This document shows positions 39,487-61,830 of a DNA stretch of 64,000 bases, one piece after another. Source of the DNA: a bacterium (GTDB lineage: Bacteria > SAR324 > NAC60-12); NCBI GenBank assembly GCA_965205865.1, contig CBDBHR010000029.1, positions 448,001-512,000 on the forward strand, in the 5' to 3' direction. Positions within the stretch are counted from its first letter, which is position 1, and each line of letters opens with the position of its first letter. The notes below the pieces were generated by a model. The model ran no database searches. It had not been told where the DNA came from and saw nothing but the letters and a program-made list of their open reading frames with translations. A program made the position numbers and the translations under genes.

Positions 39487-42400
39487 TTACATATTTCTGC
39501 GATACTGTCCTCCGTAACGATACAATTCCTGAGAAATTTGTCCCAGGGAGCAAACCTTAACGGTTTCCATCAAAGTGGCAAAAATATTCTTATTTTCCAA
39601 ACAAACGATGCGTAACTGCTGAAAAGCTTTTTCTTTTTCAGGTTCATGGAACTGATGAAATTGGGCCAGAGATGCTAATTGCATTTGTTTCTCTTCCTCG
39701 GTGGAACGACTCAATACAAGCGGATGTTCTGTTTCGGGGGGATTGGCATTAAGAAATGTATTGATGCCAATCAGGGGCAGCTTGCCGGAATGTTTCAGAC
39801 TTTCGTAATACAGCGATTCTTCCTGGATTTTATTGCGCTGGTACATGGTTTCCATGGCCTCTAATACGCCCCCACGGTCTGCAATACGATTGAATTCCGC
39901 CAGGATTGCTTCTTCGACTAAATCTGTCAACTCCGAGATGATGAAGCTTCCTTGCAGGACGTTTTCGCTCTTTGCCAGTCCCAGTTCCTGGTTGATGATC
40001 AGTTGAATTGCCAGGGCCGTCGCACCGACTCTGCAGTGGGAGTGGTGACGGCTTCATCGTAAGCATTGGTGTGCAAGGAGTTGCAATTATCGTAAATTGC
40101 GTAAAGGGCCTGCAGGGTGGTACGAATATCGTTGAAATCGATTTCCTGAGCGTGTAGCGAGCGACCCGATGTTTGGATATGGTATTTAAGTTTTTGCGAC
40201 CGTTCGTTGGCACGGTAACGCTCCCTCAACGTGACAGCAAAAATCCGTCGTGCCACCCGACCGATCACGGCATACTCCGGGTCCATTCCATTGCTGAAGA
40301 AAAAACTGAGATTGTGAGCAAAATCATCAATGGCCATACCGCGGGACAGGTAATATTCAATGAACGTGAATCCGTTTGCCAGGGTGAAAGCCACCTGTGT
40401 GATCGGGTTGGCGCCGGCTTCCACCATGTGGTATCCCGAGATACTGACGGAGTAAAAATTCTTGATCCGATTGACCGTGAAATATTCCTGGATGTCACCC
40501 ATCATCTTCAAAGCGAATTCGGTGGAAAAGATACAAGTATTCTGCGCCTGATCTTCCTTGAGAATGTCTGCCTGCACCGTCCCCCGGATCTGTTGTAGCA
40601 CTTCTTGCTTGATGTTATGGTAAATCCCCGCTTCCACCAGTTGATCTCCGGAAACTCCCAGAGTTTCCAATCCCAGTCCGTTATGCTCCTCCGGAATTTG
40701 TGTGCGATAGAGAGGGACCGACTGACCTCGTTTTTTATACAAGGTTTCAATTTTTCGTTTTGCCGGTTGCAGAAGTCCTTCCCGCCTCAGGTAGACCTCG
40801 ACTTGCTGGTCAATTGTCGTATTGAGGTAAAAAGCCAGAATCATGGGGGCTGGTCCGTTGATTGTCATGGAAACGGAGGTGTCGTGTCGACAAAGATCAA
40901 AGCCCGAATAGAGACGTTTTGCATCGTCAACCGTGCAGATCGATACCCCGGAATTTCCAATTTTGCCATAAATATCAGGACGTTGATGCGGATTTTCTCC
41001 ATAAAGCGTGACCGAATCAAAGGCAGTACTCAAGCGAGTGGACGGTTGACCGGAAGAAAGGTAGTGGAAACGATGATTGGTCCGCTCTGCCACTCCTTCA
41101 CCTGCGAACATGCGAGTGGGATCTTCATTTTGACGTTTAAAGGGGAACCCTCCCGCGGTGTAGGGAAATGATCCGGGAAAATTTTCCAACCCCATCCAAC
41201 GCACGATCGTGCCCCAGTCCTGGTAAGGTGGTACAGCGATTTTAGGAATGGAGGTGCCGGACAAACTTTCCACCCGGTTGTCCAGGGTGACGGTTTTTTG
41301 TCGAACCTTAAAACTGTATCGAGGTTTGAGAAATTTTTCACGCTCCTCCCGGAATTTCTTGTAAAACCCATGTTCTTTCAGAGAAATAGTTGATAGTCTC
41401 TCATTGTATAGATCCGCAATAGGACGCAAATTTTCTGCAAGGGCATCCCTATCGATGGGCTCAAAAGGCTCCGGCAAAGGACATTGCAACTGTTTCAGCG
41501 TGCCGTAACTTTGGTAGCAAGCATCGGCTGCCTGAGCTGTGGTTTCGATATGCCGTTTGTACCCCTGCACGGTTTTTGTGATGTCTCTGAGGTAAGTTCC
41601 CCGGTCGGCAGGAATAAATGGTTTGCTTTGGGAGAGACTGGCGGGGGGAACCGTTTTTTGCGAACGTTTCAAAAAGTTTAGTGAAACCACTTTCCGCATC
41701 AAGTTATGGTAAAACCAGTTGACTCCCGGATCATTGAATTGACTGGCAATGGTGCTATAAATTGGCAGATCTTCACCAGGGGTATCAAAATCATTGTGAT
41801 TGCGTCGGTATTGTTTTCGAACGGCGGATAAGGCTTGATCCGCTCCCTGTTTGTCTGATTTGTTGATGACGATCAAATCGGCAAAATCCAGCATATCGAT
41901 TTTTTCCAATTGCGTGGCAGCGCCAAACTCGGGGGTCATGGCGTAAACGCTCACATCTACCAATTCCGTGATCTCAGAATCCCCTTGACCGATTCCTGCG
42001 GTTTCGACAAAGATCATGTCAAATCCACTAATGCTCAACATTTTCACCGCTTCGTGAATCACGGGAGAAATCGCCGTGTTGGAATAGCGTGTTGCCATGG
42101 AACGCATGTACACGCGGTTGGTGTCAATGGCATTCATGCGAATGCGGTCCCCCAACAGCGCCCCGCCGGTCTTTCGTTTTGAGGGATCGACAGAGAGAAC
42201 AGCGATGCGCAATGCTTGAAATTCCAATAGCACCCGTCTGAGAAGTTCATCCGTCAAACAGGATTTGCCCGCTCCTCCCGTTCCCGTGATACCAATCACT
42301 GGGACGCGGGGATTTTTTTCGATATTGCCGACAACCTCTTGCAGCATGGCGGGCTGGTCAATGTATCGTTCAAGCCAGGTCAAACTGCGGGCTAGTTCCC

Positions 42401-49861: not shown

Positions 49862-50419
49862 CTATATTTCTTCAAATAGCTCGAGTAACTTAAAGACGCT
49901 GCTGTGGTTTCTCACGGTTATTTGCCGGTAAACCGCTGATGCCGGCAACTTCATCATGGTAGCCCGCGTCAATTGTTGCTTGGATACCGACCAAAATACC
50001 ACACCAGGGCCTGCAGTTGCGAATTCAATTTCTTTCTTGAGCAGAGGCAGTTTTGCCAACACTGCTTCTGCAGTGATCTCCTCGAGCGTAAAGAGAGCAT
50101 TGTGTCTGAATGCGTCGTTCTTTCCCCAATCATCGGGCGCTGCTTGAAGAGCGGATTTATATTGATCAATTGAGAGGACTACGGCACGGGCGTCATACGA
50201 AAAGCGATGGGAAAGGTCTTTCTCAATCATCTTAGTCAGTTTTTTTACATCCCGTGTCTTGCTTCGAAAGAGGATATTGCCACTTTGAATGTAAGTGCGC
50301 ACGTTGGTGAAGCCAAGGTCCTCGAAAGTTTTGCGCAATTTTTCTTTTGGAATGAGATTGTTGCCGCCAACATTGACGCCGCGCAAAAGAGCCAGAAATT
50401 TCGACCGATCATTTCTCAT
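49862..50419 (-). CDS. DUF1697-family protein
   Basis: ALLRGVNVGG, VRTYIQSGN, TVRN. Confidence 0.9.
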   Translation of the reverse strand: MRNDRSKFLALLRGVNVGGNNLIPKEKLRKTFEDLGFTNVRTYIQSGNILFRSKTRDVKKLTKMIEKDLSHRFSYDARAVVLSIDQYKSALQAAPDDWGKNDAFRHNALFTLEEITAEAVLAKLPLLKKEIEFATAGPGVVFWSVSKQQLTRATMMKLPASAVYRQITVRNHSSVFKLLELFEEI

Positions 50420-50481
50420 GGTGCCAGATGATTACAGAAATTGTTCATCGTTGCAGGAGTCTCTCTGAAACGCAACTCAGG

Positions 50482-53172
50482 TTATATTGTCGCATCTTTG
50501 TATGCCTTGAATCCATCAAGCAGTTGCAGAAATGTCTTCGGTGAATACTTCTGAAAGCCTTCTTCGTCAACATAAACGAAATCATACGAAACAGCAGACC
50601 GGGTTTTGTTGATATCCTCGCACCACTGTCGCAGTCGCTGCATCTTCGGTGATACATGCAGGTCTACTTGTCCTTTGGTCTCGGCGACAATGACGTGTCC
50701 ATCATTCAGTTTCACCAGAAAATCCGGGTAATAATTGGCGATTTCGCCATCGGCATTGACATAGTCGAGTGTGAAATGCACGGCCAGGTAATTTTTCGCG
50801 TAGGACACGACGTCGGGGCAGTTTTCCAGAAATCCGGCGAATTCCAGTTCAAATCGACTATCTCCAATGATTTTGTTGAATACGGATTTTTTAGGAATCA
50901 AATAGGCCTGGTCTTTGACCACGAAAGGCCGCGTGTGCCGTATTAGGATGGTGTCACTGATCTGCGCGTTGCCCTTGTCATGAACCGTGAGCGCGTTGAT
51001 AGCGTTTTTGAAGGATTGGATTACGGTTTTTGTGGCAACAGGTTCCGACAGATTGCGTAAGGTATTGGCTGAATTCAACTCCACCGTTCTGCCGAACAGT
51101 TTGTTCTGCGCAAAATCTTTCACCTTCCCGTAGAGCACGTCATAACCGCTAACCAGTCGCAGTTCATTCATGAGGGTGCGGGCAAAATAACCGATCACGC
51201 CGCGATAATCCGCGACACCGGCACCATCCAATTGCGTGGTGTGGGTAATCGCACCCGTCGTGATGTCTCTGAAAACGATCTCCCGTTGCTCCTCTTCACT
51301 GAATTGTTGATACGGCACGAACACAAAATCCAATCGGGCAACGTTCAGCTTCGCCAAATTCCCGTACTCCCGGTAAATGCGCCGCGTAAGTACGGGAATG
51401 GCAATGTCCAGCGCATCGATATCCTTTCGGGGATTGTCTTCGTCCACTTCAACCACGAGCGGCGTTTTGGGCTTGGTGTCCGCACCCATGGCCTGACGCT
51501 TCAATTCCACGCCTTCCGCTTGAATTGACTCGACGAATTCCATAAAGGCGTCGGTGCCGATGACGCTGACCGCTTCATCCTCCGTGTCGGGGTACATCTT
51601 GCGAAGCCCGCGCCCCAAGGTCTGTTCGGGTAAAATGTTACTCTTGGCGGAATAGGCTCGTAGTCCCACAATGGTAGTGACGTTCCTGACGTCCCAACCT
51701 TCCTTGAGCACCAGCACCGAAACAATGGCCTTGTACGGGCTTTCTTGCGAATCGATGGTATTCGCCAGTTTACGAAGTTGTTCGAGTTCTTCTTTCTTCT
51801 TTCCGGACGTTACTTCGGAGATTTCGCCATTTTGTTTGGTGTGAATCACCAGCACGGCGTTTTTCAGATCGGGATAGCGGTTTTCGAGATAGTCTGCCAC
51901 GTCATCGCAGTTCCGGGTGTCATCGGTCATCACGAACAGAATGGCTTTCCGGCCCATCTTTTCATGTTCCGCATACGCCTTACGCCATTCGACGACGCCG
52001 AGTTCGAGGTAGTCTGCGTATTTCTCGGTATACTTCGCGCTTTGCCGCTCGGTGAGTTTGGCTCGGCTGGGAGCATCGGGAAGTACCGGATGCTTGACCA
52101 CGTTTTGCGAGATCGCTTCCACGAGGGGGTAGTCCGCCACCGTCTGTACGAAAATCGCTCCGTTGTTGTGCCGGGGGGTTGCGGTTACGTCCACTTGCAA
52201 GGCCAGTGCGCTCTCTTTCTGTAACAAGCGGTTGTGAATGTCTTCGATGGACTTGAACCAAGCCAGCTTCGAATCGTGGAGATGGTGCGCTTCGTCGTTC
52301 AACACCATCAGTTCATCGACGTCGCGCACGATCATCCCCAGGTCCACCCGAGAATCCGTGGTTGCGCCCACAGGTCGTTTACCCAGGAAGTATTCCATGC
52401 TGTTTTCGTCATCGGGTGATGGCAAGGAGTCGTCACTGGAATAGACGCGGTGGATGTTACTCAGAAAAATATTGCCGGTGGCTCGCGTGACGCGCACCTC
52501 GTCCTGCAAGTGCAGGGTCAGTTGAAAATCGTCACGCCAATTGCGAGCCTGGTAGCCGTTTTCGGGAAGCACCGGGTCGTGAAAGAAGACCCGCAATCCT
52601 TGAAAATCCCGGAAGATACGGTCCAGCACGATGATATTGGGAGCAATGACCAGGAAATTACGTGAGAGCTCGGAGCTTTGTTCGTACAGTTTATGGAAGA
52701 AACTCCAGGCAATCACCAGGCTCATCACTTTTGTTTTTCCCGTACCCGTCGCCAGTTTCACCACGAAGCGTCGCCAGCTTTCGTCGAACATTCCGGATGA
52801 AACAACACCGGAACTGTCAAAACGCATCAGGTCGAATTTGTCTTTCACTCCCACCACGTCGTGCAAGTAGATGATGGTTTCCAGTGCCTCGCGCTGGGCG
52901 AAGTAATACTGAAACTCCGCTATTCTGCCGTCAGCCTTTGGTAACAGGTGCCGTTCCTTGAACCACCAATTCAGCAGACTCTTGCTGGTATCGCTTGCCC
53001 CCAGGTAGCCGCTCTCCCGGAATTCCTTCACCTTGCGCCGAAGCTGCGCCACCAGAGGAGGCATCAGCTTGTCCATGTTGGTGTTACCCAAGGCCTCGCC
53101 GGCCGGGAACCAGCGGATATCCGGGTTGAGTATCTTGTGAGGAGACTTGGGGAAATCAGGATGAAGTGCCAT
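50482..53172 (-). CDS. res: Type III restriction enzyme Res subunit
   Basis: ATGTGKT (Walker A), DEAHH, EGWD, Q.LGRGLR, C-terminal YYPDF...ETKG nuclease. Confidence 0.9.
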   Translation of the reverse strand: MALHPDFPKSPHKILNPDIRWFPAGEALGNTNMDKLMPPLVAQLRRKVKEFRESGYLGASDTSKSLLNWWFKERHLLPKADGRIAEFQYYFAQREALETIIYLHDVVGVKDKFDLMRFDSSGVVSSGMFDESWRRFVVKLATGTGKTKVMSLVIAWSFFHKLYEQSSELSRNFLVIAPNIIVLDRIFRDFQGLRVFFHDPVLPENGYQARNWRDDFQLTLHLQDEVRVTRATGNIFLSNIHRVYSSDDSLPSPDDENSMEYFLGKRPVGATTDSRVDLGMIVRDVDELMVLNDEAHHLHDSKLAWFKSIEDIHNRLLQKESALALQVDVTATPRHNNGAIFVQTVADYPLVEAISQNVVKHPVLPDAPSRAKLTERQSAKYTEKYADYLELGVVEWRKAYAEHEKMGRKAILFVMTDDTRNCDDVADYLENRYPDLKNAVLVIHTKQNGEISEVTSGKKKEELEQLRKLANTIDSQESPYKAIVSVLVLKEGWDVRNVTTIVGLRAYSAKSNILPEQTLGRGLRKMYPDTEDEAVSVIGTDAFMEFVESIQAEGVELKRQAMGADTKPKTPLVVEVDEDNPRKDIDALDIAIPVLTRRIYREYGNLAKLNVARLDFVFVPYQQFSEEEQREIVFRDITTGAITHTTQLDGAGVADYRGVIGYFARTLMNELRLVSGYDVLYGKVKDFAQNKLFGRTVELNSANTLRNLSEPVATKTVIQSFKNAINALTVHDKGNAQISDTILIRHTRPFVVKDQAYLIPKKSVFNKIIGDSRFELEFAGFLENCPDVVSYAKNYLAVHFTLDYVNADGEIANYYPDFLVKLNDGHVIVAETKGQVDLHVSPKMQRLRQWCEDINKTRSAVSYDFVYVDEEGFQKYSPKTFLQLLDGFKAYKDATI

Positions 53173-53184
53173 AGATCATAGTGC

Positions 53185-53661
53185 TTAAAAACGCCATTTC
53201 TCAAGTTTCATGAATCCTTCGAGATCAACACAATCCACATCGAAGTGTTTACATACATTTGGAATTTGCGCTGCATTGGGTTTGTCTTTTTCGGTCGTTA
53301 CGACACAAGCATTTTCCAGGAATTTGGCCCGCGCAATAACAAATGGATCGGCGACCGGACGTCCTTGCAGCCGCTCCTTTTTGCGGATCATCATCTGGAA
53401 GTGAGGGACATTGAATATCTTCGTGACAATCGCTAGTTCTGCTGCAGTTGGCGTTATGAATACTTTTTCTCGATTCACCTTACACCAACTTGCCAAGGTG
53501 TCCTCGGCCGCCTTCAATTCGTTAAAGACTTCTCGCGTTGAAGTGATCCTACAGTCTTCAATCATCTCGTCAAAGTGTTTCCATAGCGAGGGAAATCGTT
53601 CGCGATAAAAGTGATTGAAAAGAATAATCAGCGGACCACTATCGAATACATAGACTGTCAC
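53185..53661 (-). CDS. DUF4411-family PIN-like protein
   Basis: YVFDS..I......FP.LW...EV..EL...ADPFVIA.A....VVT.E....IP.VC; GTGA overlap with the upstream gene. Confidence 0.85.
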   Translation of the reverse strand: MTVYVFDSGPLIILFNHFYRERFPSLWKHFDEMIEDCRITSTREVFNELKAAEDTLASWCKVNREKVFITPTAAELAIVTKIFNVPHFQMMIRKKERLQGRPVADPFVIARAKFLENACVVTTEKDKPNAAQIPNVCKHFDVDCVDLEGFMKLEKWRF

Positions 53662-54848
53662 GTCGTAGTCCCCTGATTGAACAACCATTCTTCCAATTGA
53701 GGCACATTTTTCGTTTTTAAGTCCAGAAAGTCTGCAGTTTGCTCGACGGTAATGCGCCCCTTGTGATAATGGCTGAAGACGGCTTCAATATACTTCTCAC
53801 CAAGATAAGAACCTTTGTTCCGATAATAATCACCTCCGGAACCACCACGTTCTTTTCGTTCATTCCACCATTGCCGCGTCTTCTTTTCGTAATCCTGCTG
53901 GCTGACTTGACCCCAATCGAGAAGTCGCCGCAAAATGGTTTCTCGACTCACACTATAAAAATCAGCCAATTCTTCAATTGTACTGTCAAGAATGGGCATT
54001 CCTGCTGAACGCGATTGGAAATCCGAAGAAGGCACCAGAAACTCGGAGGCAAATTGATTGCAAAGAATTTCTGTTTGTTTGTTGTCACCGGTCAAATGCT
54101 CAATATAATCGTCTCGCCAGGTATCCACTCCACCAGTTTGCATCAGTAAATGCGCCAGCTCATGGAACAGTGTAAAAATCTGCCGGGTCTTTGTATTGTT
54201 GTTGTTGACATAGATTACCGGAAAATTCACGTCATACATGCTGAATCCGGAAAAAGAATTGGCGTCAGGCTCCGTTTTCTTCTTTCCCGGGGGATTGAAG
54301 GTGTCCTTGAATACAAAAACACCATGATCTTCTAAAGCCATCCTCCAATGTTTAAAAGCGTCATCGGTATTTTGCCAACTCTGTTGATGAGTGAGTTGGA
54401 TGCCCAGATAGCCCCGGACTCTATCTGCCATTTTGGTAGCAGCAATAGAGGTGGTGAAGTCAAGATCACGCAGTATCAGGCTGTTTCCCGGATTCACGTT
54501 TTCATACAACTCAGAAAGATTCAGTTGTAATACCTTAGCTTTACGAAGAAGGTAAAGCATACGAGATGGGATGCGTTGCAACTCTTTTTCTGGCAAAGTG
54601 CGAAACGATTGTTCTATTGTTTCCTCTTCTGGTACTTCAGGGAAAAAGAATAGAGCAATAGGGCGTTTGTAGATATCGTATGCCAGGGTTTCCAACTGGA
54701 CATAGGTTGGTGATGCCTCACCACGTTCCCAAGCCTCTATCTCAGTCACTTTTTTCTTCATTCGCTTCGCCACATCCTTCAGTGAGAGATTCAGACTGAC
54801 ACGCGCCCAACATAGTACTTTTGGATTAATAGGAATTGGCTGGCTCAT
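53658..54848 (-). CDS. XRE-HTH plus ImmA/IrrE Zn-metallopeptidase
   Basis: N-terminal HTH (WERGE..PT..QL), FTLFHELAH (HExxH), E..CN.FA.EFL.P, VS.E..L.RL. Confidence 0.92.
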   Translation of the reverse strand: MSQPIPINPKVLCWARVSLNLSLKDVAKRMKKKVTEIEAWERGEASPTYVQLETLAYDIYKRPIALFFFPEVPEEETIEQSFRTLPEKELQRIPSRMLYLLRKAKVLQLNLSELYENVNPGNSLILRDLDFTTSIAATKMADRVRGYLGIQLTHQQSWQNTDDAFKHWRMALEDHGVFVFKDTFNPPGKKKTEPDANSFSGFSMYDVNFPVIYVNNNNTKTRQIFTLFHELAHLLMQTGGVDTWRDDYIEHLTGDNKQTEILCNQFASEFLVPSSDFQSRSAGMPILDSTIEELADFYSVSRETILRRLLDWGQVSQQDYEKKTRQWWNERKERGGSGGDYYRNKGSYLGEKYIEAVFSHYHKGRITVEQTADFLDLKTKNVPQLEEWLFNQGTTT

Positions 54849-54957
54849 ACTGTCATTGCCACAATAGTCATTGTACTATTACCAAGAATGTCCACCACGT
54901 TATTTGCCTCGAAATTGCATAATAGAAGTAGCGAACAATAGATTTAATTGTCACCAT

Positions 54958-55494
54958 TCAAACCAGCAAACGTCGATTCGCTGTCAGAACGGGTATTCCC
55001 CGACCTCTGAAATCAGCATCATTTGTCATCAGTGTCAATCCCTTGCTTTTGCAGAGTTCCGTTATAACCTGATCATTGAAGTCGGAATTACCTTGGGCAT
55101 AATCATTAAGCACATCATCAATTTTCAATTTGTCAAATCCACTGTCTATCTGTGAACAATGCTTCATAAAATTCTTGACATCGGCAGTAATATTTTGAGC
55201 AACTGGTTTGAAATATGAACTCTTGCGGAAATCTTTAAATTCTTTTTGCGTTGCTTTATTTCTCCATATAATTCTGGCATAGGTGTTAATAAACTCCGAA
55301 ATGATAAGGACATCAATGTAAATACGGCTTTTGGCTTTAAGAATACGCCTAAAAGCCTTAGAATAAACCCTCACGTGGTTGGGAGCCTTTGGACTTTGTG
55401 GTCCATAAAAATACAGCCAGATATTGGCATCCAGAAACAATTTGTCTTTGGAAGTAAAATTGTAATTGTTCACCCGTATTGCTTTATGCGTCAT
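54958..55494 (-). CDS. PIN-domain ribonuclease
   Basis: FLDANIW, ISEF, DFND, TNDADF acidic tetrad. Confidence 0.85.
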   Translation of the reverse strand: MTHKAIRVNNYNFTSKDKLFLDANIWLYFYGPQSPKAPNHVRVYSKAFRRILKAKSRIYIDVLIISEFINTYARIIWRNKATQKEFKDFRKSSYFKPVAQNITADVKNFMKHCSQIDSGFDKLKIDDVLNDYAQGNSDFNDQVITELCKSKGLTLMTNDADFRGRGIPVLTANRRLLV

Positions 55495-55849
55495 CGTCCT
55501 CATCCTCCAGCGTCTCGCGAACTACCTGGTCGAATCTCTGCGGATCCTTGAAATACATTTTGGCCGTGTCAACGACGCGCTTCAACAGTTCCCGATCATC
55601 TGGCTCTATGTCTTCCACCTTCAGCAGGGAACGAATTTGTTCTTCGCTGAAGGTCCCATACAATTGACCAATGGCGGCATTCAGAAAGGCCGAGGTCAAC
55701 GTAGAAACATTTCGAAATGAAAGTGCGACCTTAAAGTGCTCTTTAAGAGCGAAATCAAGGCGGTCATAGACTTTCTGACCGTCGCCGGAAGCCACGCACA
55801 GGGGGCTGCCCACTACTTCAAATATGGCTATTGTAATCTCTTTTTGCAT
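55484..55849 (-). CDS. STAS-like domain protein (DUF4325-like)
   Basis: G..VY......VALSFRNVSTLTSAFLNAAIG.L; AGGAGGTG RBS overlaps the upstream stop. Confidence 0.8.
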   Translation of the reverse strand: MQKEITIAIFEVVGSPLCVASGDGQKVYDRLDFALKEHFKVALSFRNVSTLTSAFLNAAIGQLYGTFSEEQIRSLLKVEDIEPDDRELLKRVVDTAKMYFKDPQRFDQVVRETLEDEDDDA

Positions 55850-55858
55850 AGTCACCTC

Positions 55859-56731
55859 CTAAAAAATGTCCTCTTCGGTTAGCTCGGAAGCAAGGGCGTA
55901 AGACTGTGTGTCCGCCGTATTGATTTCCACACTTACTACAGTACCGGGGAAAGGATAGTTTAACGTTGAGGTAAAAATTTCCCCTTTTTCTCGCTTCCAA
56001 AAACCTGTATCTGAAACAATCTGAATGCGGCCACCATTCAGGTCAATGAACTCACATAACAACTTCAGTCCCAATCCACCCGGAACATTGCCCTGCTTGG
56101 TCGTGTTATTGGCGTTGGTAGCCCAGATAATCGCCTTTTCCGACGAAAGTTCAAGTCCGGTATGGTCTATTATATTTTGACGCATACCCACTCCTAGATC
56201 AGCCACTGTAAAATCAAGACGATGTTTAGTAGGAAAAAACTGTCCACAACTAAAGATTCCTAACTTAGTACGCGAATGCAATACGGCATTGCTGAATATC
56301 TCAAAGATGCTCTCGCGGAATTTTTTTAACAACCCTGAAGTCATTTCAGGCATTTCGGAACGGTTTATAAACTCGTTTTCAATATAACCTGCGAAATAGC
56401 GGTCATCTTCAACATCAAATCGTTGATAGGAAATGGTCGTTCCCCAAGAATCCGAGATTTGCTGCCGACCATAGTGACTCAAGAATCCGTTTTTTGAAAG
56501 AATACGTTCAACTCCGGGCCGGATATTGAGCAAATTGATTGTGTTCAAATTGTTTCCCAAGAGGTAAAGTATTGCGCCAAGTGCCGCGCACATATCAGCA
56601 TCAAACCAATGAGTTGCGCTCATGTCAATTTCGACATCAGCAAAAAAACATTCTCTGGTCCGTGCATGGAGATACGCCAATTCTTTAAAACTTTCCTCGT
56701 CATGATGAATCACCGGTAGAGGGAATCTCAT
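55859..56731 (-). CDS. STAS-like N-domain plus GHKL/HATPase (anti-sigma-kinase-like) protein
   Basis: IDMS...WFD (STAS-like); [10 protein letters not shown] (N box), DLGVG (G1), GGLGL (G2), PGT (G3); no HisKA or TM segment. Confidence 0.8.
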
Positions 56732-58941
56732 ACGGTCACCTCCACGATCGTCATGGTGTCGTTACCAAAAATGTCCACCACTTTGACGGCGAGCTTGCGT
56801 CGTCCGGTCGGACATTCGTGGGCGACGCTGGTCAATTCCAACGTCCGGTCTTTTTTGGTACGGAAACTCTGCCACTCGTTCTCGAAGACGTAATCGCCGG
56901 TCCACTGTTCTTCCCACTGACCCGTTTCGGGATCTTGCGCGCGGATGATTTCACGTTTGCTCTCGAAGTCGAAATCCACCGACCAGTAATCGATCCAATC
57001 CGTCCAGTGCCGGGTCAGCATTTCGCGTTGGACGATCCCGTTCGCATCGATTCGCACTTTGACGATCTGTCCCTTTTCCACCACGATTTTACTACCGGCT
57101 TTCCTGTTCGCCGACAAGGACGTCTCGGCAACGGCAATCGAATCCTGCGAGTAGAACACCGAAAAATCGCTCAACTCCACCGCCACCGTGGGAGACGCGC
57201 CCTTCTTACCCGCACTGACATGTGGCTTGACTTCGATGAATGCCACGTCATGGAACACCACCTGATTGCGCTCCACCGCCCGCTTGTCGAATACCTCGGC
57301 GGGAATGTATTTGGGCGCGACGTCGATGCCCCTGGCACGAGCTTCGTCCAGCACGTTGGGAAACAGTCCCATCTCGAACTCGAAGCCGAGGATGTCCACC
57401 CTGGTGATGCGATTCTTGCGGCACTCGAGGATAATTTCTTCCACGTACAACCTGGTGACGGGTAGGTTCACCGGCCCCACCGCCACCAGCCGACCCGCTT
57501 TCCTGCCGTGGAAAGCGACGAAGTGCGCAATCTTTTCCGCTTGGTAGGCGCGCAGGATCAGGTCCAGGAAGGTGGCTTCCTTTTCTTGCAATTGCTTCTG
57601 CTGCTCGGCTTCGCGCAGGTTGGGATTGACGCCGATGTAGTGTTGCCGCTCGTACTTACCGAGGTTGAGGATTTCAAAGGCGCGGTAGTCCTTACCCTTG
57701 GCCTTGAGTCGACGCTGCACGCCGATCATGCGCTTGCGCGTGGTGTGGATGGCGAACTTGCCGAGATCGCTGCAAATCCACTTGCGCCCCAGTTTCTCCG
57801 CCACCGCCGCCGTGGTGCCGGAACCACAGAAGAAATCGGCGACCAGATCGCCTTCGTTGGAAGAAGCTTTGATGATGCGCTCGATGATTTCTGAAGGCTT
57901 TTGAGTAGGGTAACCAGTCCTGTCTTTAGCAACTTGATTTAACTGTGGAATATCGTCCCAATAATCCAAACATAATGTCCCATCCTTCATGTAATAGCGC
58001 ATTACCAATTCCGGGTTTGTCTTTTCCCAATCCGGTGACACATCACGTGCTCCTTTTATAGGACTATCTCTAATAAAACGCCCAATCAATCTATAAGGAC
58101 CTTTTTCATCTTCGTATTTGTATCTTGCTTTTTGCTCATCATTTAGTGGCTTCATAACCGATTGGAAGTTGTAGATCCAACTATTAGATTTTGTGTAAAA
58201 ATATATTGTGTCATGGCGCCTACCATAAGCAACCTTAGGGATTCGACCTCCTGTATAACACCATGAAATTTCGTTTCTAAATCCAGCTTTGTCATTGTCT
58301 CCACCTTTTCCAAAGATATCATCTAGCACTAACCGAATCATGCTATTTACACGAGGATCACAATGCACATAAATGCTTCCATCTTCGGCCAGTAGATCTC
58401 GCATGAGAATCAATCGTTCGTAGATCATAGCGATGAAGGAATCCGCGCCTTTGCCCCAGGTGTCGCGGTAGGCGATTTCTTCGAGGATGTTCGGTTTTTT
58501 GGTGAAGGTATCTCCGCCGATCTCGATATCCATGGAAAAATCAGCGCCGACGTCGAAGGGCGGGTCGATATAGATCAGTTTGAGGCCGCCCTGATTTTCG
58601 ATTTCCTCGCGCAGGGGTCCGTTCTTCAGGGAGGACAAAATCAACTTGTTGTCGCCCCAGATGAGCTTGTTGGTCCAGCCACTGAGTTGGCGCCCGCGCT
58701 CATCGAAGAGGGACATCTGGGTTTGCGTGTCCTCGGTTTTTTCCGCCCTCGGCTCGTCCACCTGTTCGATGGTCTGAAAAGGGAGCACGACGTGGCAGAC
58801 CTCGTTGGTTTTGCCGTTCCAGACCAATTCCACTTCTCGTTTGTCCTCAAACAGCAGAAAACGGTACTTCTCCGGCAAGGGTTTGTCAGCTTCCAGAAAA
58901 CGGATGATTTCCTGTTGTTCCTGTTCCGTCAGTCGTGGCAT
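56728..58941 (-). CDS. mod: Type III R-M methyltransferase Mod (beta class, long C-terminal extension)
   Basis: IYIDPPF (motif IV), [18 protein letters not shown] (motif I). Confidence 0.92.
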
Positions 58942-59065
58942 GAGTCACTATTCTAATGATTAATGGAGACCCCCCAAGTTGGGTGAATAACAATAGCAAA
59001 GTATTCAACCCGCCAGCATGGACGCCACGCGGGGGGCCAAAAATCTCGATGGCTCATTGGATATT

Positions 59066-59368
59066 TCAGAACAACGGTCTTGCAAAACGGTCGATATGTT
59101 CTTTCAATGGGGGGTGATGGATCAGTTCATACGCTTTGACGTCGACTTTATAAGGCAAACTGCTTTCTTGAAAGCAAGTCCACAAACGGTCATTCGTTGC
59201 TTCATCGAGTTTACCGTATAGCACCAGATCGATATCCGAATAACTCTTGTAAGTCCCGGTTGCCCTGGAACCAAACAAAGCTACGGATTCAACGGCAGGG
59301 GCGACGTCTTTGATAATTTCGCTGATCAAGCCGAGCTGCCTTTTGTTCAAACCATGAGCAATCATCAT
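59066..59368 (-). CDS. Minimal nucleotidyltransferase (MNT) antitoxin
   Basis: LFGSRA.G....SDIDL, LPYKVD. Confidence 0.9.
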   Translation of the reverse strand: MMIAHGLNKRQLGLISEIIKDVAPAVESVALFGSRATGTYKSYSDIDLVLYGKLDEATNDRLWTCFQESSLPYKVDVKAYELIHHPPLKEHIDRFARPLF

Positions 59369-59790
59369 TGCAACCGTCCATATTCTTCGGATAGTTTTTC
59401 ATACAACTCACCAAACAGGTTCAGATACTTTGCCTCTATTTGTTTTATAACGGAATCGAACTTACTGAAATCATAAGTATGACTCATTTTATTGCGCGCG
59501 TCCAAGGCGTTCATCCAGTCTTCTCCCTTGGACAGTAGTTTGGCAGCGACCGCTTCTTTAATTACGGCTCTCGGGGTGATTTGTTCAAAAACGACATTTT
59601 GGTTTTCCAGATAGTCTTTGACGGTCTTCCATGCGAGTTCCGTGCAGTACTCGAATCGTTGAATCAATCCTTCTTTGGCAAGTTGGTTCAGCTCTTCTTC
59701 TCGATAACTTTCCACCGCCTCTTGCAACAGAAAATACGCCCTCTTGAAATTATCGAATCGGTATTGCCAGCGTTTCTTTTCTGCCGTCAT
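59365..59790 (-). CDS. HEPN protein (HI0074-like), putative RNase toxin
   Basis: GLIQRFEY..ELAWK, PR..I, RNKMSH (R-x4-H). Confidence 0.9.
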   Translation of the reverse strand: MTAEKKRWQYRFDNFKRAYFLLQEAVESYREEELNQLAKEGLIQRFEYCTELAWKTVKDYLENQNVVFEQITPRAVIKEAVAAKLLSKGEDWMNALDARNKMSHTYDFSKFDSVIKQIEAKYLNLFGELYEKLSEEYGRLQ

Positions 59791-59827
59791 GGTAACTCCT
59801 CTTGATCAACTGAAGGAACAAAAGTTT

Positions 59828-60517
59828 TCAAATGTTGAAGCGGATTTCGATGATTTCCCGGGGTTGCACGATATAATCCCTGTCCGTTAGTTTGACCACC
59901 CCTTTTGATTTGCATTCGTTGAGATTGTGGCATCTCATATAATCTTCGAATGCAACCACGGTTCCTTTAATAAATCCCCGGGCCAGGTCGCTGTGAATTT
60001 TGGCGGCGCAGCTGAGGATGTCGGAGTTCTTTTTGACCAGCCAGGCATGCGCTTCATTAGGTGCCGAAGTGTAGAAAAACATATAGTCTGCCTTTTCCAA
60101 CGCTGACTCGATGACGGTGTTGACGGTTTCACCGCCTTCCAACTGTATGACCGGCTTGAAACTGAAGGGGGCCAAGGTACGGAGGACTCCTTTTTCCTCT
60201 TCGCTGAATCCTGCATCACAAAGCGGGATTTCCTGATCCAGCACTCGCAAACATTTATCCACCAGTTTTTTTTCACGAGGTTCCCCGACCCGGCTCAGTC
60301 GCGTTTCCATTTTTTCCATGTCCAGGATCAACAAGTCCAACAATTTGTCTTTGGGTAGCACAATGACTTCACACCGGTTGAATTCATCGCGGAACAACTC
60401 TGCAAAAAACGGGGCGATTTTTCGAGGTCTGTCTTTTTCTTGCAGCGCTGTCAGGTACTCATCGTGGTATTTGATCTTTCCTTCAGGCAATTCCATGCCG
60501 GTGAAAGCTATTTTCAT
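59828..60517 (-). CDS. YchF-related protein with a C-terminal TGS/DUF933 domain and no P-loop
   Basis: FFYT....HAW......AAKIHSDLARGFIK...DYIVQ..IIEIRFN; no GxxxxGKS. Confidence 0.75.
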   Translation of the reverse strand: MKIAFTGMELPEGKIKYHDEYLTALQEKDRPRKIAPFFAELFRDEFNRCEVIVLPKDKLLDLLILDMEKMETRLSRVGEPREKKLVDKCLRVLDQEIPLCDAGFSEEEKGVLRTLAPFSFKPVIQLEGGETVNTVIESALEKADYMFFYTSAPNEAHAWLVKKNSDILSCAAKIHSDLARGFIKGTVVAFEDYMRCHNLNECKSKGVVKLTDRDYIVQPREIIEIRFNI

Positions 60518-60570
60518 GATCACGCTCCGCAAAAACGGGGGAGACGAAACAAATCCATATCCCCTTTTTC

Positions 60571-61830
60571 TTAAGCCAGGAATGGGATGGTCATGGGGCC
60601 TTCCGGCAAGACGGCGACAGGGGCGTCCTCACCGAGTTGACCAATTTCCTTTGCAATAAAGGCATTGATGTCTTCGATGGGCTCCATATGCGCGCGTTGC
60701 ACCTCCCCGGCATCGAGATCACTATAGACGGCCACGCGGGCCTTCAACAGAATGAGCGACAAAAGTTGATTTTGCCACTGGTCGGGTTTTTGGAATGGAG
60801 GGGTATGCAATGCTTCGAGAAATGCTTTGGGCGCGTAGTCGAAGAGCATCTGGCGAAAGCTGCCATGATTGGGGAAACCGTCATTGCAACGCGCCGCCAT
60901 GATGATCAATCCACCAGGCGCAACGATCTGCGCGGCGGCAGACATGCCTTTCACCGATTGATAAAGATTTTGATCCAGGGGGAAGCCACTGTTGCTGGTG
61001 ATCACCACCGGATACTGCCGGGAACAGGAAACCATGGCAGTTGATTTGGCAAAACGACAACCTTCTTGATGGGCTAGCGAAACGTTTCCACAAAAAAAAC
61101 GGGTGATCCGCTGTTGGTGATTCAAGGTTACGTTGATACAGAAATCAATAGGAATCAATGATCCATAACGCTGGATTTGCTCCTGGGTTGGATTATTTTC
61201 CAGCACGCCCCAAGTGCTGCGAGGGTCTTGAATCACTGAGGCGCGGTGATAATGTTGAATGGAGGCAATGTCGGCAATACCGGGAAACACGGCTTTGAAT
61301 CCTCCGGAAAATCCGGCCATGAAATGCGGTTCGATGAATCCCATGATGATCCGTTTATCGGCCTGCGCATAGTTTTTGTTCATCAATATGGGATAACCCC
61401 CTTCTCGTTTGCCGACCTCCTGTAAAGTGGAGGGATCGAAACCATTGTGATTGACCACCAGATATTGCCTCGCCACTTTTTTGCCGACCATCGCTTCAAT
61501 CTCATCGGGCGTGTTTTGACGATGGGTGCCCGTCCCGAGAACGATGGTGAAATTTTCCGCGGGGACGTGATGCAGTTCCTCGAATAACCAGGGAAGCAGT
61601 CGCTCCGATGGCAAGGCGCGTGTGATGTCCGGGATGACGACAGCTACTTTATCGTCTGCAGCGATCAATTTCCTCAGGGGGGCGCTGCCGATGGGATCCG
61701 CAACCGCTTTCTTGAATGCCCGAGCTTCATCTGGCAAGCCTGGAATGAACTGCGGACGGATTTCCCTCACCTGCTCGCTGGGAATCGTCACTTCGATGCT
61801 TTCTTTGCCATAAGGAAGTTGCGCCTTCAT
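60571..61830 (-). CDS. larA: Nickel-pincer-dependent lactate racemase family (LarA)
   Basis: VVIPDITR, GTGTHR, NH, PHFMAGFSGGFK, NLYQSVK. Confidence 0.85.
   Translation of the reverse strand: MKAQLPYGKESIEVTIPSEQVREIRPQFIPGLPDEARAFKKAVADPIGSAPLRKLIAADDKVAVVIPDITRALPSERLLPWLFEELHHVPAENFTIVLGTGTHRQNTPDEIEAMVGKKVARQYLVVNHNGFDPSTLQEVGKREGGYPILMNKNYAQADKRIIMGFIEPHFMAGFSGGFKAVFPGIADIASIQHYHRASVIQDPRSTWGVLENNPTQEQIQRYGSLIPIDFCINVTLNHQQRITRFFCGNVSLAHQEGCRFAKSTAMVSCSRQYPVVITSNSGFPLDQNLYQSVKGMSAAAQIVAPGGLIIMAARCNDGFPNHGSFRQMLFDYAPKAFLEALHTPPFQKPDQWQNQLLSLILLKARVAVYSDLDAGEVQRAHMEPIEDINAFIAKEIGQLGEDAPVAVLPEGPMTIPFLA

Follow-up and report, generated by a model that had tools for sequence, protein, structure and literature searches.

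A stretch of 64,000 nucleotides (nt) from a bacterium of the SAR324 lineage (NAC60-12; GenBank assembly GCA_965205865.1, contig CBDBHR010000029.1, positions 448,001–512,000; hereafter, the window) carries on its minus strand three tightly coupled genes (54958–56731) that encode a protein with STAS and GHKL domains, a stand-alone STAS protein and a PIN-domain protein. This triad is very probably a member of the VapKSC anti-phage system acting by the published mechanism, and the genes are denoted here vapK, vapS and vapC. As such, the triad is already known, with the system, a structure and a defence phenotype in print (Chambers, Rani, Min, Villa and Corbett, EMBO J 2026, preprint February 2026; PMC13373217), and by itself it adds little to the published system. 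New here is the context: VapKSC is nested in a type III restriction-modification (R-M) operon, with a conserved overlapping junction to the methyltransferase gene mod and, in many relatives, with a stub of mod left behind, a context that is absent from the accessible parts of PMC13373217. In a widespread clade, the R-M system has repeatedly decayed around the intact cassette.

Identity of the triad

The study by Chambers et al. and its preprint are the only literature found on VapKSC. In the published system, VapS neutralises the toxin VapC, and VapK is proposed to free VapC upon sensing single-stranded DNA (ssDNA); 289 instances are reported, and 36% of these have a defence gene recognised by PADLOC no more than 10 kb away (PMC13373217). 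The Escherichia VapS2VapC2 complex, solved at 3.4 Å with 2:2 stoichiometry (PDB 9z7o), has the conserved Ser48 of VapS buried in the interface and the active-site Mg2+ of VapC left in place. The C-terminal region of VapS is required for neutralisation, the phosphomimetic substitution S48E abolishes binding and releases VapC, and the toxicity of VapC is abolished by D28A. The Escherichia operon protects about 100-fold (~2-log) against phage Bas42, and the protection is lost with VapC D28A, VapS S48A or VapK F54A, where F54 is the aromatic residue of the putative ssDNA site, the counterpart in the kinase CapK being W68 (all PMC13373217).

The window triad shares with Escherichia VapKSC the gene order kinase-STAS-PIN, with the genes adjacent or overlapping on one strand, the domain make-up, the conserved serine, the catalytic aspartate and homology in all three proteins; it differs in the low identity of the proteins and in lying within a type III R-M operon. 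VapS (55484–55849; 121 amino acids (aa)) consists of a STAS domain of the DUF4325 family (PF14213, E 3.1e-16) and a C-terminal helix and matches Escherichia VapS (9z7o_A) with E 3e-15, residues 5–117 against chain residues 19–129. Ser53 of the window protein falls opposite chain residue S66, which is the native S48 if an 18-residue tag is present, as judged from the chain length of 134 compared with the 116 residues named in PMC13373217. VapC (54958–55503; 181 aa, or 178 aa if translation begins at the ATG at 55494) belongs to the PIN family (PF01850, E 1.7e-8) and matches Escherichia VapC (9z7o_C), with D25 opposite the catalytic D28. When a profile of 24 VapC homologues is compared with the whole PDB, 9z7o_C is the sole match (E 4.2e-13).

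The modelled complex of VapC and VapS scores 0.87 compared with 0.00 for the best control, with at least 97% of the contacts agreeing between runs and a partner pLDDT (predicted local distance difference test) of at least 89; of the 157 solved complexes held against the mark set for this score, 116 reach it, compared with 2 of the 215 mismatched pairs. The predicted interface holds VapS residues 50–55, including S53, and the C-terminal residues 84–116, with the C-terminal helix. Because a like complex, 9z7o, is already solved, the model shows likeness to that complex and is not proof of binding.

Relatives of the triad were sought in one genome per prokaryotic species; 157 places were confirmed and the best 80 were kept (loci numbered with the prefix L below), so that the sample is biased to close relatives. 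Dataset EV3 of PMC13373217 names three genomes that carry relatives, Nitrosomonas nitrosa Nm90, Zetaproteobacteria CG_4_9_14_3_um_filter_49_83 and Deinococcus gobiensis I-0. The VapK proteins of the first two are 70% (L015) and 66% (L068) identical to that of the window, and plasmid P5 of D. gobiensis carries an ‘ATP-binding / STAS-like / PIN' triad (L082) that matches the window kinase with E 7e-61 (35% identity), VapS with 5e-25 and VapC with 5e-28. The triads L015, L068 and L082 are presumably the same genes as the EV3 entries of those genomes. The D. gobiensis triad, a distant one, occupies positions 39983–41829 of NC_017806.1, a 54.6-kb plasmid. Around it lie numerous small genes for hypothetical proteins, two genes for GIY-YIG nucleases and helix-turn-helix (HTH) regulators, with no adjoining R-M genes.

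The functional residues are strongly conserved, as counted over 81 sequences for VapK and VapS and 78 for the PIN protein. In VapK (55859–56731; 290 aa), E144/N148, D178-x-G180-x-G182, G218-G-L-G-L222 and G263-T264, which we take to be the N, G1, G2 and G3 boxes of a GHKL kinase, are at least 97% conserved. The protein gives no Pfam match to HisKA and has no transmembrane-like segment (the maximum Kyte-Doolittle mean over 19 residues is 1.29). W42, a candidate for the aromatic residue of the ssDNA site, is kept in 79 of the 81 sequences and also in D. gobiensis. In the LTSAFL motif of VapS, T52 is invariant (81/81) and S53, the predicted phospho-acceptor, is kept in 80 sequences, replaced by Thr in one, and present in D. 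gobiensis as well. The acidic residues of the PIN protein are nearly invariant (D25, E70 and D144 in 78/78, D162 in 77/78 and D164 in 76/78). At E ≤0.001, VapK has 1687 homologues, the top ones about 70% identical, nearly all of them 290 aa in length and coming from many sources.

In the AlphaFold2 model of VapK, residues 1–90 superpose on STAS domains of anti-sigma-factor antagonists and SLC26 proteins (Z 8–9.9, root-mean-square deviation (rmsd) ~2 Å over 86–90 residues), with 6m36_B and 1tid_B among the matches of the modelled fold (Z 8–9.5). Residues 81–275 superpose on the serine kinase SpoIIAB (1l0o_A; Z 8.1, rmsd 3.6, 125 aligned residues), and the GHKL domain also superposes on histidine-kinase catalytic domains (Z 6–7.4) and on SiaB (Z 6.7). 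When the whole model is searched against the PDB with Foldseek, nothing reaches E 0.001, and GyrB and Hsp90 head the list.

Several observations weigh against the assignment to VapKSC with the published mode of action. The identity of the window proteins to those of Escherichia is low, and VapC reaches no better than E 8e-5 by single sequence. The match of VapK to HATPase_c (24.0 bits) falls under the cutoff of 26.4, its model is of moderate confidence (mean pLDDT 70, predicted template modelling score 0.70, residues 84–107 below 50), and the protein is without a solved relative detectable by sequence (best E against the PDB 0.68 for the single sequence and 0.031 for the profile). In the published work, the kinase activity of VapK and its activation by ssDNA are predictions drawn from CapK and an AlphaFold 3 model (Escherichia VapK is insoluble; PMC13373217). 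The PADLOC check proposed in the preliminary description of the stretch yielded no model that matches VapS or VapC, and for VapK nothing more than a weak match to DrmA (E 3.8e-4), a lack that reflects the date of the library (2023) rather than novelty. NCBIfam has nothing beyond one chance-level match for the three proteins.

The preliminary description had recognised the STAS+GHKL protein with its four boxes and without HisKA or membrane segments, the stand-alone STAS protein with Thr/Ser in LTSAFL and the PIN protein with its acidic residues, and all these features are borne out by the Pfam matches, conservation and modelled folds given above. The STAS-PIN complex, for which it had called for a model, came out well apart from the controls and similar to the solved 9z7o. 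Its idea of a phosphorylation-gated PIN toxin serving as an abortive-infection module is, in essence, the published VapKSC model (PMC13373217). Conversely, the suggestion that no named system has this architecture is superseded by the name VapKSC (PMC13373217).

Distinction from related systems

The kinase and STAS proteins invite comparison with several known pairs. CapK/CapS likewise combine a STAS+GHKL kinase with a STAS substrate carrying a conserved serine, have frequent R-M neighbours and share the proposed ssDNA trigger. CapK has an N-terminal HTH domain, CapS is a repressor with a C-terminal winged HTH (wHTH) domain, and the pair adjoins R-M systems in 88 of 443 cases (PMC13373217). 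The window proteins have no HTH or wHTH domain (no HTH family is matched by VapK or VapS in Pfam, the STAS fold of VapK begins at residue 1 and VapS is only 121 aa long), and their output is a PIN toxin, not transcription; a regulator of the CapKS type was therefore rejected.

With SpoIIAB/SpoIIAA and RsbW/RsbV, the triad shares the GHKL serine kinase fold and a STAS partner that carries a conserved serine at the start of helix 2. In those systems the kinase holds the output, whereas in the window set the STAS protein does, and VapK has an N-terminal STAS domain of its own. The partner switch put forward in the preliminary description thus stands for the kinase/STAS half, which is SpoIIAB-SpoIIAA-like, and fails in the strict sense: the operon and its immediate neighbourhood contain no gene for a sigma factor, and in the homologous solved system it is the STAS protein that binds the output, the part of the kinase being limited to modifying that protein.

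Canonical VapBC modules resemble the triad in that the gene for a PIN toxin is directly preceded by that for the small protein which neutralises it. VapS, however, is a STAS protein without a DNA-binding domain, and release of the toxin is proposed to occur by phosphorylation, not proteolysis. A canonical VapBC pair was rejected, as VapS matches DUF4325/STAS only and none of the AbrB, RHH, HTH or PhD types.

For an RNase encoded within an R-M operon, the nearest precedent is the anticodon nuclease PrrC. Its gene is embedded in the type IC EcoprrI locus, and PrrC acts as a second line of defence upon phage interference (PMC12707154). That R-M system is of type I, not type III, and it is the R-M proteins that hold PrrC in a latent state, without a kinase or an antitoxin. 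We know of no sequence relationship between PrrC and VapC.

Gene arrangement of the operon

The triad is part of a set of seven genes arranged head to tail on the minus strand (50482–58941 in open reading frame (ORF) coordinates). The upstream end is mod (56728–58941; 737 aa), with matches to Pfam N6_N4_Mtase (E 5.9e-41) and PADLOC MTase_III (E 3.3e-109) and with DPPF and FxGxG motifs in its translation; the downstream end is res (50482–53172; 896 aa), with matches to Pfam ResIII (E 3.3e-15) and PADLOC REase_III (E 1.2e-20), GTGKT, DEAH and C-terminal PD...ExK motifs, and a score of 259 bits, under the cutoff, with NF046055. Mod and Res occur together by PADLOC, Pfam and motifs alike, and the two genes are predicted to encode a type III R-M pair. 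The five genes between them have a G+C content of 0.39–0.47, compared with 0.52–0.58 for most of mod and res.

The tight coupling of the triad reported in the preliminary description is present at each junction. The TGA stop of mod and the ATG of vapK share the tetranucleotide ATGA (plus strand tcat, 56728–56731). The TAG stop of vapK (55861–55859) lies inside TAGGAGGTGACTATG, so that an AGGAGG ribosome-binding site overlaps the stop, and with this site the ATG at 55849 (121 aa) is the more likely start of vapS than the GTG at 55855 (123 aa). The overlap of vapS and vapC amounts to 20 nt with the PIN start at 55503 and to 11 nt with the second ATG at 55494, which has GGAGG 9 nt upstream and agrees with the start of many homologues. 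A consensus scan of 50000–60700 finds 11 promoter-like sites (11.5 expected) and 7 terminator-like sites (11.9 expected), neither above chance.

Within mod, residues ~201–340 are hypervariable, with 16–34% identity among 23 homologues compared with 84–92% in the flanks. A target-recognition domain that has been swapped, giving differing specificities in an otherwise conserved R-M system, would be expected to leave such a pattern. Coinciding with this stretch, the G+C content of mod falls to 0.39 at 58000–58399 (residues ~181–314).

Conservation of the cassette

The 80 loci span Nitrospirota, Chloroflexota, Poribacteria, Binatota, Pseudomonadota, Acidobacteriota, Planctomycetota and other phyla. 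In an ORF search, the kinase and STAS proteins of the window are matched in all 80 loci, the PIN protein in 79, Mod in 42, Res in 32, and the M78 peptidase and the DUF4411 protein encoded between vapC and res in the window (see below) in 4 each. The co-occurrence anticipated in the preliminary description is thus nearly complete: the sole locus without a PIN match (L037) is on a contig that ends 33 nt past the STAS gene. The PIN ORF is at least 150 aa long in 77 loci and shorter in L011 (118 aa) and L039 (70 aa), in which vapC may be broken. The order kinase-STAS-PIN is found everywhere but in L073, which reads STAS-PIN-kinase and has a small ORF on the opposite strand in between. Chance is far from accounting for this arrangement.

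The genome of the window has a single copy of vapKSC. The Caldilineaceae chromosome OZ253474.1 carries two, L019 and L030, about 1.3 Mb apart, with a mod stub in L030 and none in L019. Among plasmids, there is one record only, that of D. gobiensis. In viral contigs, 56 pattern matches yielded no confirmed case, so that there is no evidence of a phage-borne clade in a scan that detects close relatives only.

Nesting within type III R-M operons

A full-length homologous mod lies directly upstream of vapK in 21 of the 80 loci, and in all 21 the two genes overlap by 4 nt (NTGA). On the other side, a res gene of at least 800 aa begins 1–7 nt after vapC in 12 loci and 102–208 nt after it in L005, L015 and L029; it lies beyond inserted genes in four loci (L003, L007, L021 and L074) and upstream of mod in five, to which L009 can be added, where the contig end cuts res. 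Fragments of the 5' part of res follow vapC in six loci. The N. nitrosa Nm90 locus (L015) reads mod (764 aa)-vapK-vapS-vapC-res (892 aa). In L003 (6770–8317) and L007 (9776–11323), two small minus-strand ORFs without a Pfam match (95 and 204 aa) lie between vapC and res; these two nearly identical loci are assigned to different phyla.

Remnants of mod were sought with the C-termini of Mod proteins (tblastn) in the 900 nt upstream of vapK. Either mod or a remnant of its 3' part is present in 50 of the 80 loci, mostly ending at the vapK start, and there is no trace of mod in 30. True stubs, with enough upstream DNA, are found in about 23 loci and encode 22–205 aa; six others are limited by contig ends.

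Distances between loci correlate with r 0.49 for Mod and VapK (n 23) and 0.71 for Res and VapK (n 24), values comparable to the 0.55 for Mod and Res (n 18), and in each case none of 2000 permutations reaches the observed r, to which shared ancestry of the hosts could contribute. In the VapK tree (a quick tree with Shimodaira–Hasegawa-like approximate likelihood ratio test support only, unrooted and drawn with a midpoint root), full and stub states of mod are interleaved in both halves, with close sister pairs of one full and one stub locus such as L003/L007, L045/L040 and L038/L013. The state without any mod is clustered on this tree, with 12 changes compared with a mean of 24.4 for shuffled states (none of 500 shuffles is as low). 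Most simply, these patterns suggest joint inheritance of the five genes as a single operon in the clade, with many losses of the R-M genes while vapKSC was kept; since the VapK tree is unrooted, the nested ancestry is suggested rather than demonstrated. Taken together, the observations support a physical and evolutionary linkage of vapKSC to type III R-M. The notion of the preliminary description that the cassette backs up the R-M system would go beyond this linkage, as the survey supports linkage, not function.

The term ‘type III' does not occur in the main text of PMC13373217. A term search of all files of EV3 returns no RM_type_III entries, compared with 29 entries prefixed RM_type_I (5 of them IIG) and 20 DMS_other, and the EV3 record of Nm90 lists PDC-S01 only. 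The nesting of vapKSC between mod and res with a conserved overlapping junction is thus a link missing from the PADLOC-based neighbourhood table of the paper, as far as its accessible parts go. No such nesting is apparent among the papers listed for type III R-M and toxin-antitoxin systems.

Where R-M genes are absent, the cassette has both defence and housekeeping neighbours, as found among 71 proteins (cluster representatives and same-strand immediate neighbours) drawn from 410 flanking ORFs. The former include an AAA_15/AAA_21 ATPase with a small partner, in eight loci, Schlafen/AlbA_2, ThsB-TIR with SLATT, HEPN, and type ISP, type IIG and type I methylases, and the latter include PGI, RuvB/C, SelB, GlyRS, RecO and FtsH.

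Proposed mechanism and alternative explanations

By homology with the Escherichia system, VapS would hold VapC inactive in two ways, through the face that bears S53 and through its C-terminal helix, which lies close to the active site. Single-stranded DNA arising from DNA damage or phage infection would activate VapK, which would then phosphorylate the conserved serine of VapS, putatively S53 here, and this modification would free VapC. The released toxin, a PIN nuclease, would cut RNA, its presumed target, and halt growth. In this genome, the cassette would operate from between mod and res, with vapK translationally coupled to mod, and a predicted second, protease-gated PIN-like module (an RmrA-like peptidase with a DUF4411 protein) adjoins it.

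A stronger version of this scheme is that vapKSC is an integral, ancestrally nested part of mod-vapK-vapS-vapC-res, so that restriction and a PIN toxin triggered by DNA damage form one coupled, two-layer system; this version is possible and at present somewhat doubtful. Under such coupling, cleavage of unmodified DNA by Res, or self-restriction after the loss of Mod, would supply the ssDNA that activates VapK. The cassette would outlive the R-M system together with a 3' stub of mod, possibly as the promoter or the translational coupling lies there, and the gap between mod and res would be a slot that gathers gated toxins; the RosmerTA-like pair of this operon and the AAA_15 ATPase pairs of other loci would be examples. 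Should VapK be triggered naturally by the products of restriction, the operon would be a compact natural case of first-line restriction wired to second-line growth arrest, an idea that has been put forward for CapKS. The clade may also yield a soluble VapK for work on the kinase and its response to ssDNA.

Three other explanations have to be weighed against VapKSC membership with the published mechanism. The cassette could serve chiefly for addiction (post-segregational killing) and so stabilise either the R-M locus or itself, with VapS as a plain labile antitoxin and VapK tuning it instead of sensing infection. Such behaviour would be in line with the persistence of the intact cassette where R-M has decayed, that is, in the ~23 loci with a mod stub beside complete vapKSC, with the many triads amid housekeeping genes, which fit self-preserving selfish behaviour, and with the finding that VapS and VapC act as a toxin-antitoxin pair in Escherichia (PMC13373217). 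Nevertheless, VapS S48A and VapK F54A abolish the phage protection in Escherichia, which indicates a kinase-dependent trigger (PMC13373217), and VapK is as conserved as VapS and VapC, being present in 80 of 80 loci with a mean distance of 0.35. An explanation by addiction in the main is thus improbable, even though addiction and defence are not mutually exclusive.

It is very improbable that VapK and VapS form a CapK/CapS-like transcriptional switch that responds to DNA damage and controls res or the whole R-M operon, with the PIN protein as a side player. The homologous architecture of CapK/CapS, the frequent location of that pair next to R-M genes (88/443, PMC13373217) and the position of the cassette upstream of res in the same operon would fit such a switch, but VapS, with its 121 aa and STAS/DUF4325 match only, lacks a wHTH domain, VapK has no N-terminal HTH, and the triad occurs without R-M, with 30 of the 80 loci devoid of any trace of mod. 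Moreover, Escherichia VapS, to which the window protein can be aligned from end to end, binds VapC, not DNA. The chance that the GHKL protein is some other ATPase, akin to MORC, Hsp90 or GyrB, and that VapC is gated otherwise than by phosphorylation, appears slighter still. The best whole-model matches in Foldseek are indeed the ATPase domains of GyrB and Hsp90, at E 1.3e-3 or weaker, and phosphotransfer by VapK is a proposal in the published model (PMC13373217). At the level of domains, the best match is a serine kinase, SpoIIAB (Z 8.1), and SiaB follows with Z 6.7; the STAS partner has a substrate-like serine in 80 of 81 sequences and a Thr at that position in the remaining one; and the phosphomimetic S48E releases VapC in Escherichia (PMC13373217), all of which argue against gating by other means.

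A second nested module and neighbouring genes

In the window, a spacer of 109 nt (54849–54957) separates vapC from a minus-strand gene (53658–54848; 396 aa) for a protein with HTH (HTH_3, E 2.6e-6) and M78/ImmA-IrrE metallopeptidase (Peptidase_M78, E 6.5e-19) domains, which in PADLOC matches RmrA (E 3.3e-24) and capP (E 2.2e-21). The end of this gene is overlapped by the next one on the same strand (53185–53688; 167 aa), which encodes a DUF4411 PIN-like protein (PF14367, E 3.8e-32), the presumed toxin partner of the peptidase, and precedes res. The DUF4411 protein has no match in PADLOC, RmrT included. DUF4411.1 has been described as a potential toxin alongside HTH proteins and DUF955 proteases in three-component systems (PMC5499597), and the RosmerTA (RmrT/RmrA) family is described in PMC10440598. 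In its composition the pair is like a protease-gated toxin pair of the RosmerTA type and is a candidate for one; the RmrA-type HTH+ImmA protease is the point of likeness, and the DUF4411 toxin and the nesting between vapC and res are the points of difference. Peptidases of the CapP type are reported to respond to ssDNA (PMC13373217, citing Lau et al. 2022). If such a response holds here, one could speculate that two DNA-damage-gated PIN-like toxins reside in one R-M operon.

An M78+DUF4411 pair likewise lies between vapC and res in the Dehalococcoidia locus L074 (10011–11689). Very similar pairs are found elsewhere in two Caldilineaceae loci, L021 (184–1649; peptidase E 6e-203) and L075 (5950–7610; E 1e-197). 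In eight loci (L009, L011, L012, L021, L033, L040, L045 and L075), an AAA_15/AAA_21 ATPase of ~464 aa followed by a protein of ~190–200 aa without a Pfam match is encoded downstream of vapC, one gene later in L075 and between vapC and res in L021. The slot after vapC seems to collect differing accessory cassettes.

Directly upstream of mod, a toxin-antitoxin pair of the HEPN/MNT type is encoded on the minus strand (59066–59790), with an NTase_sub_bind protein of 141 aa (E 9.4e-41) followed by an NTP_transf_2 protein of 100 aa (E 3e-12); with this pair, the locus is a small island of defence and toxin-antitoxin genes. A minus-strand ORF of 234 aa with a TTG start (59828–60532) matches the C-terminal domain of YchF only (PF06071, E 3.5e-24), with no match to the GTPase domain, and may be a truncated or divergent ychF.

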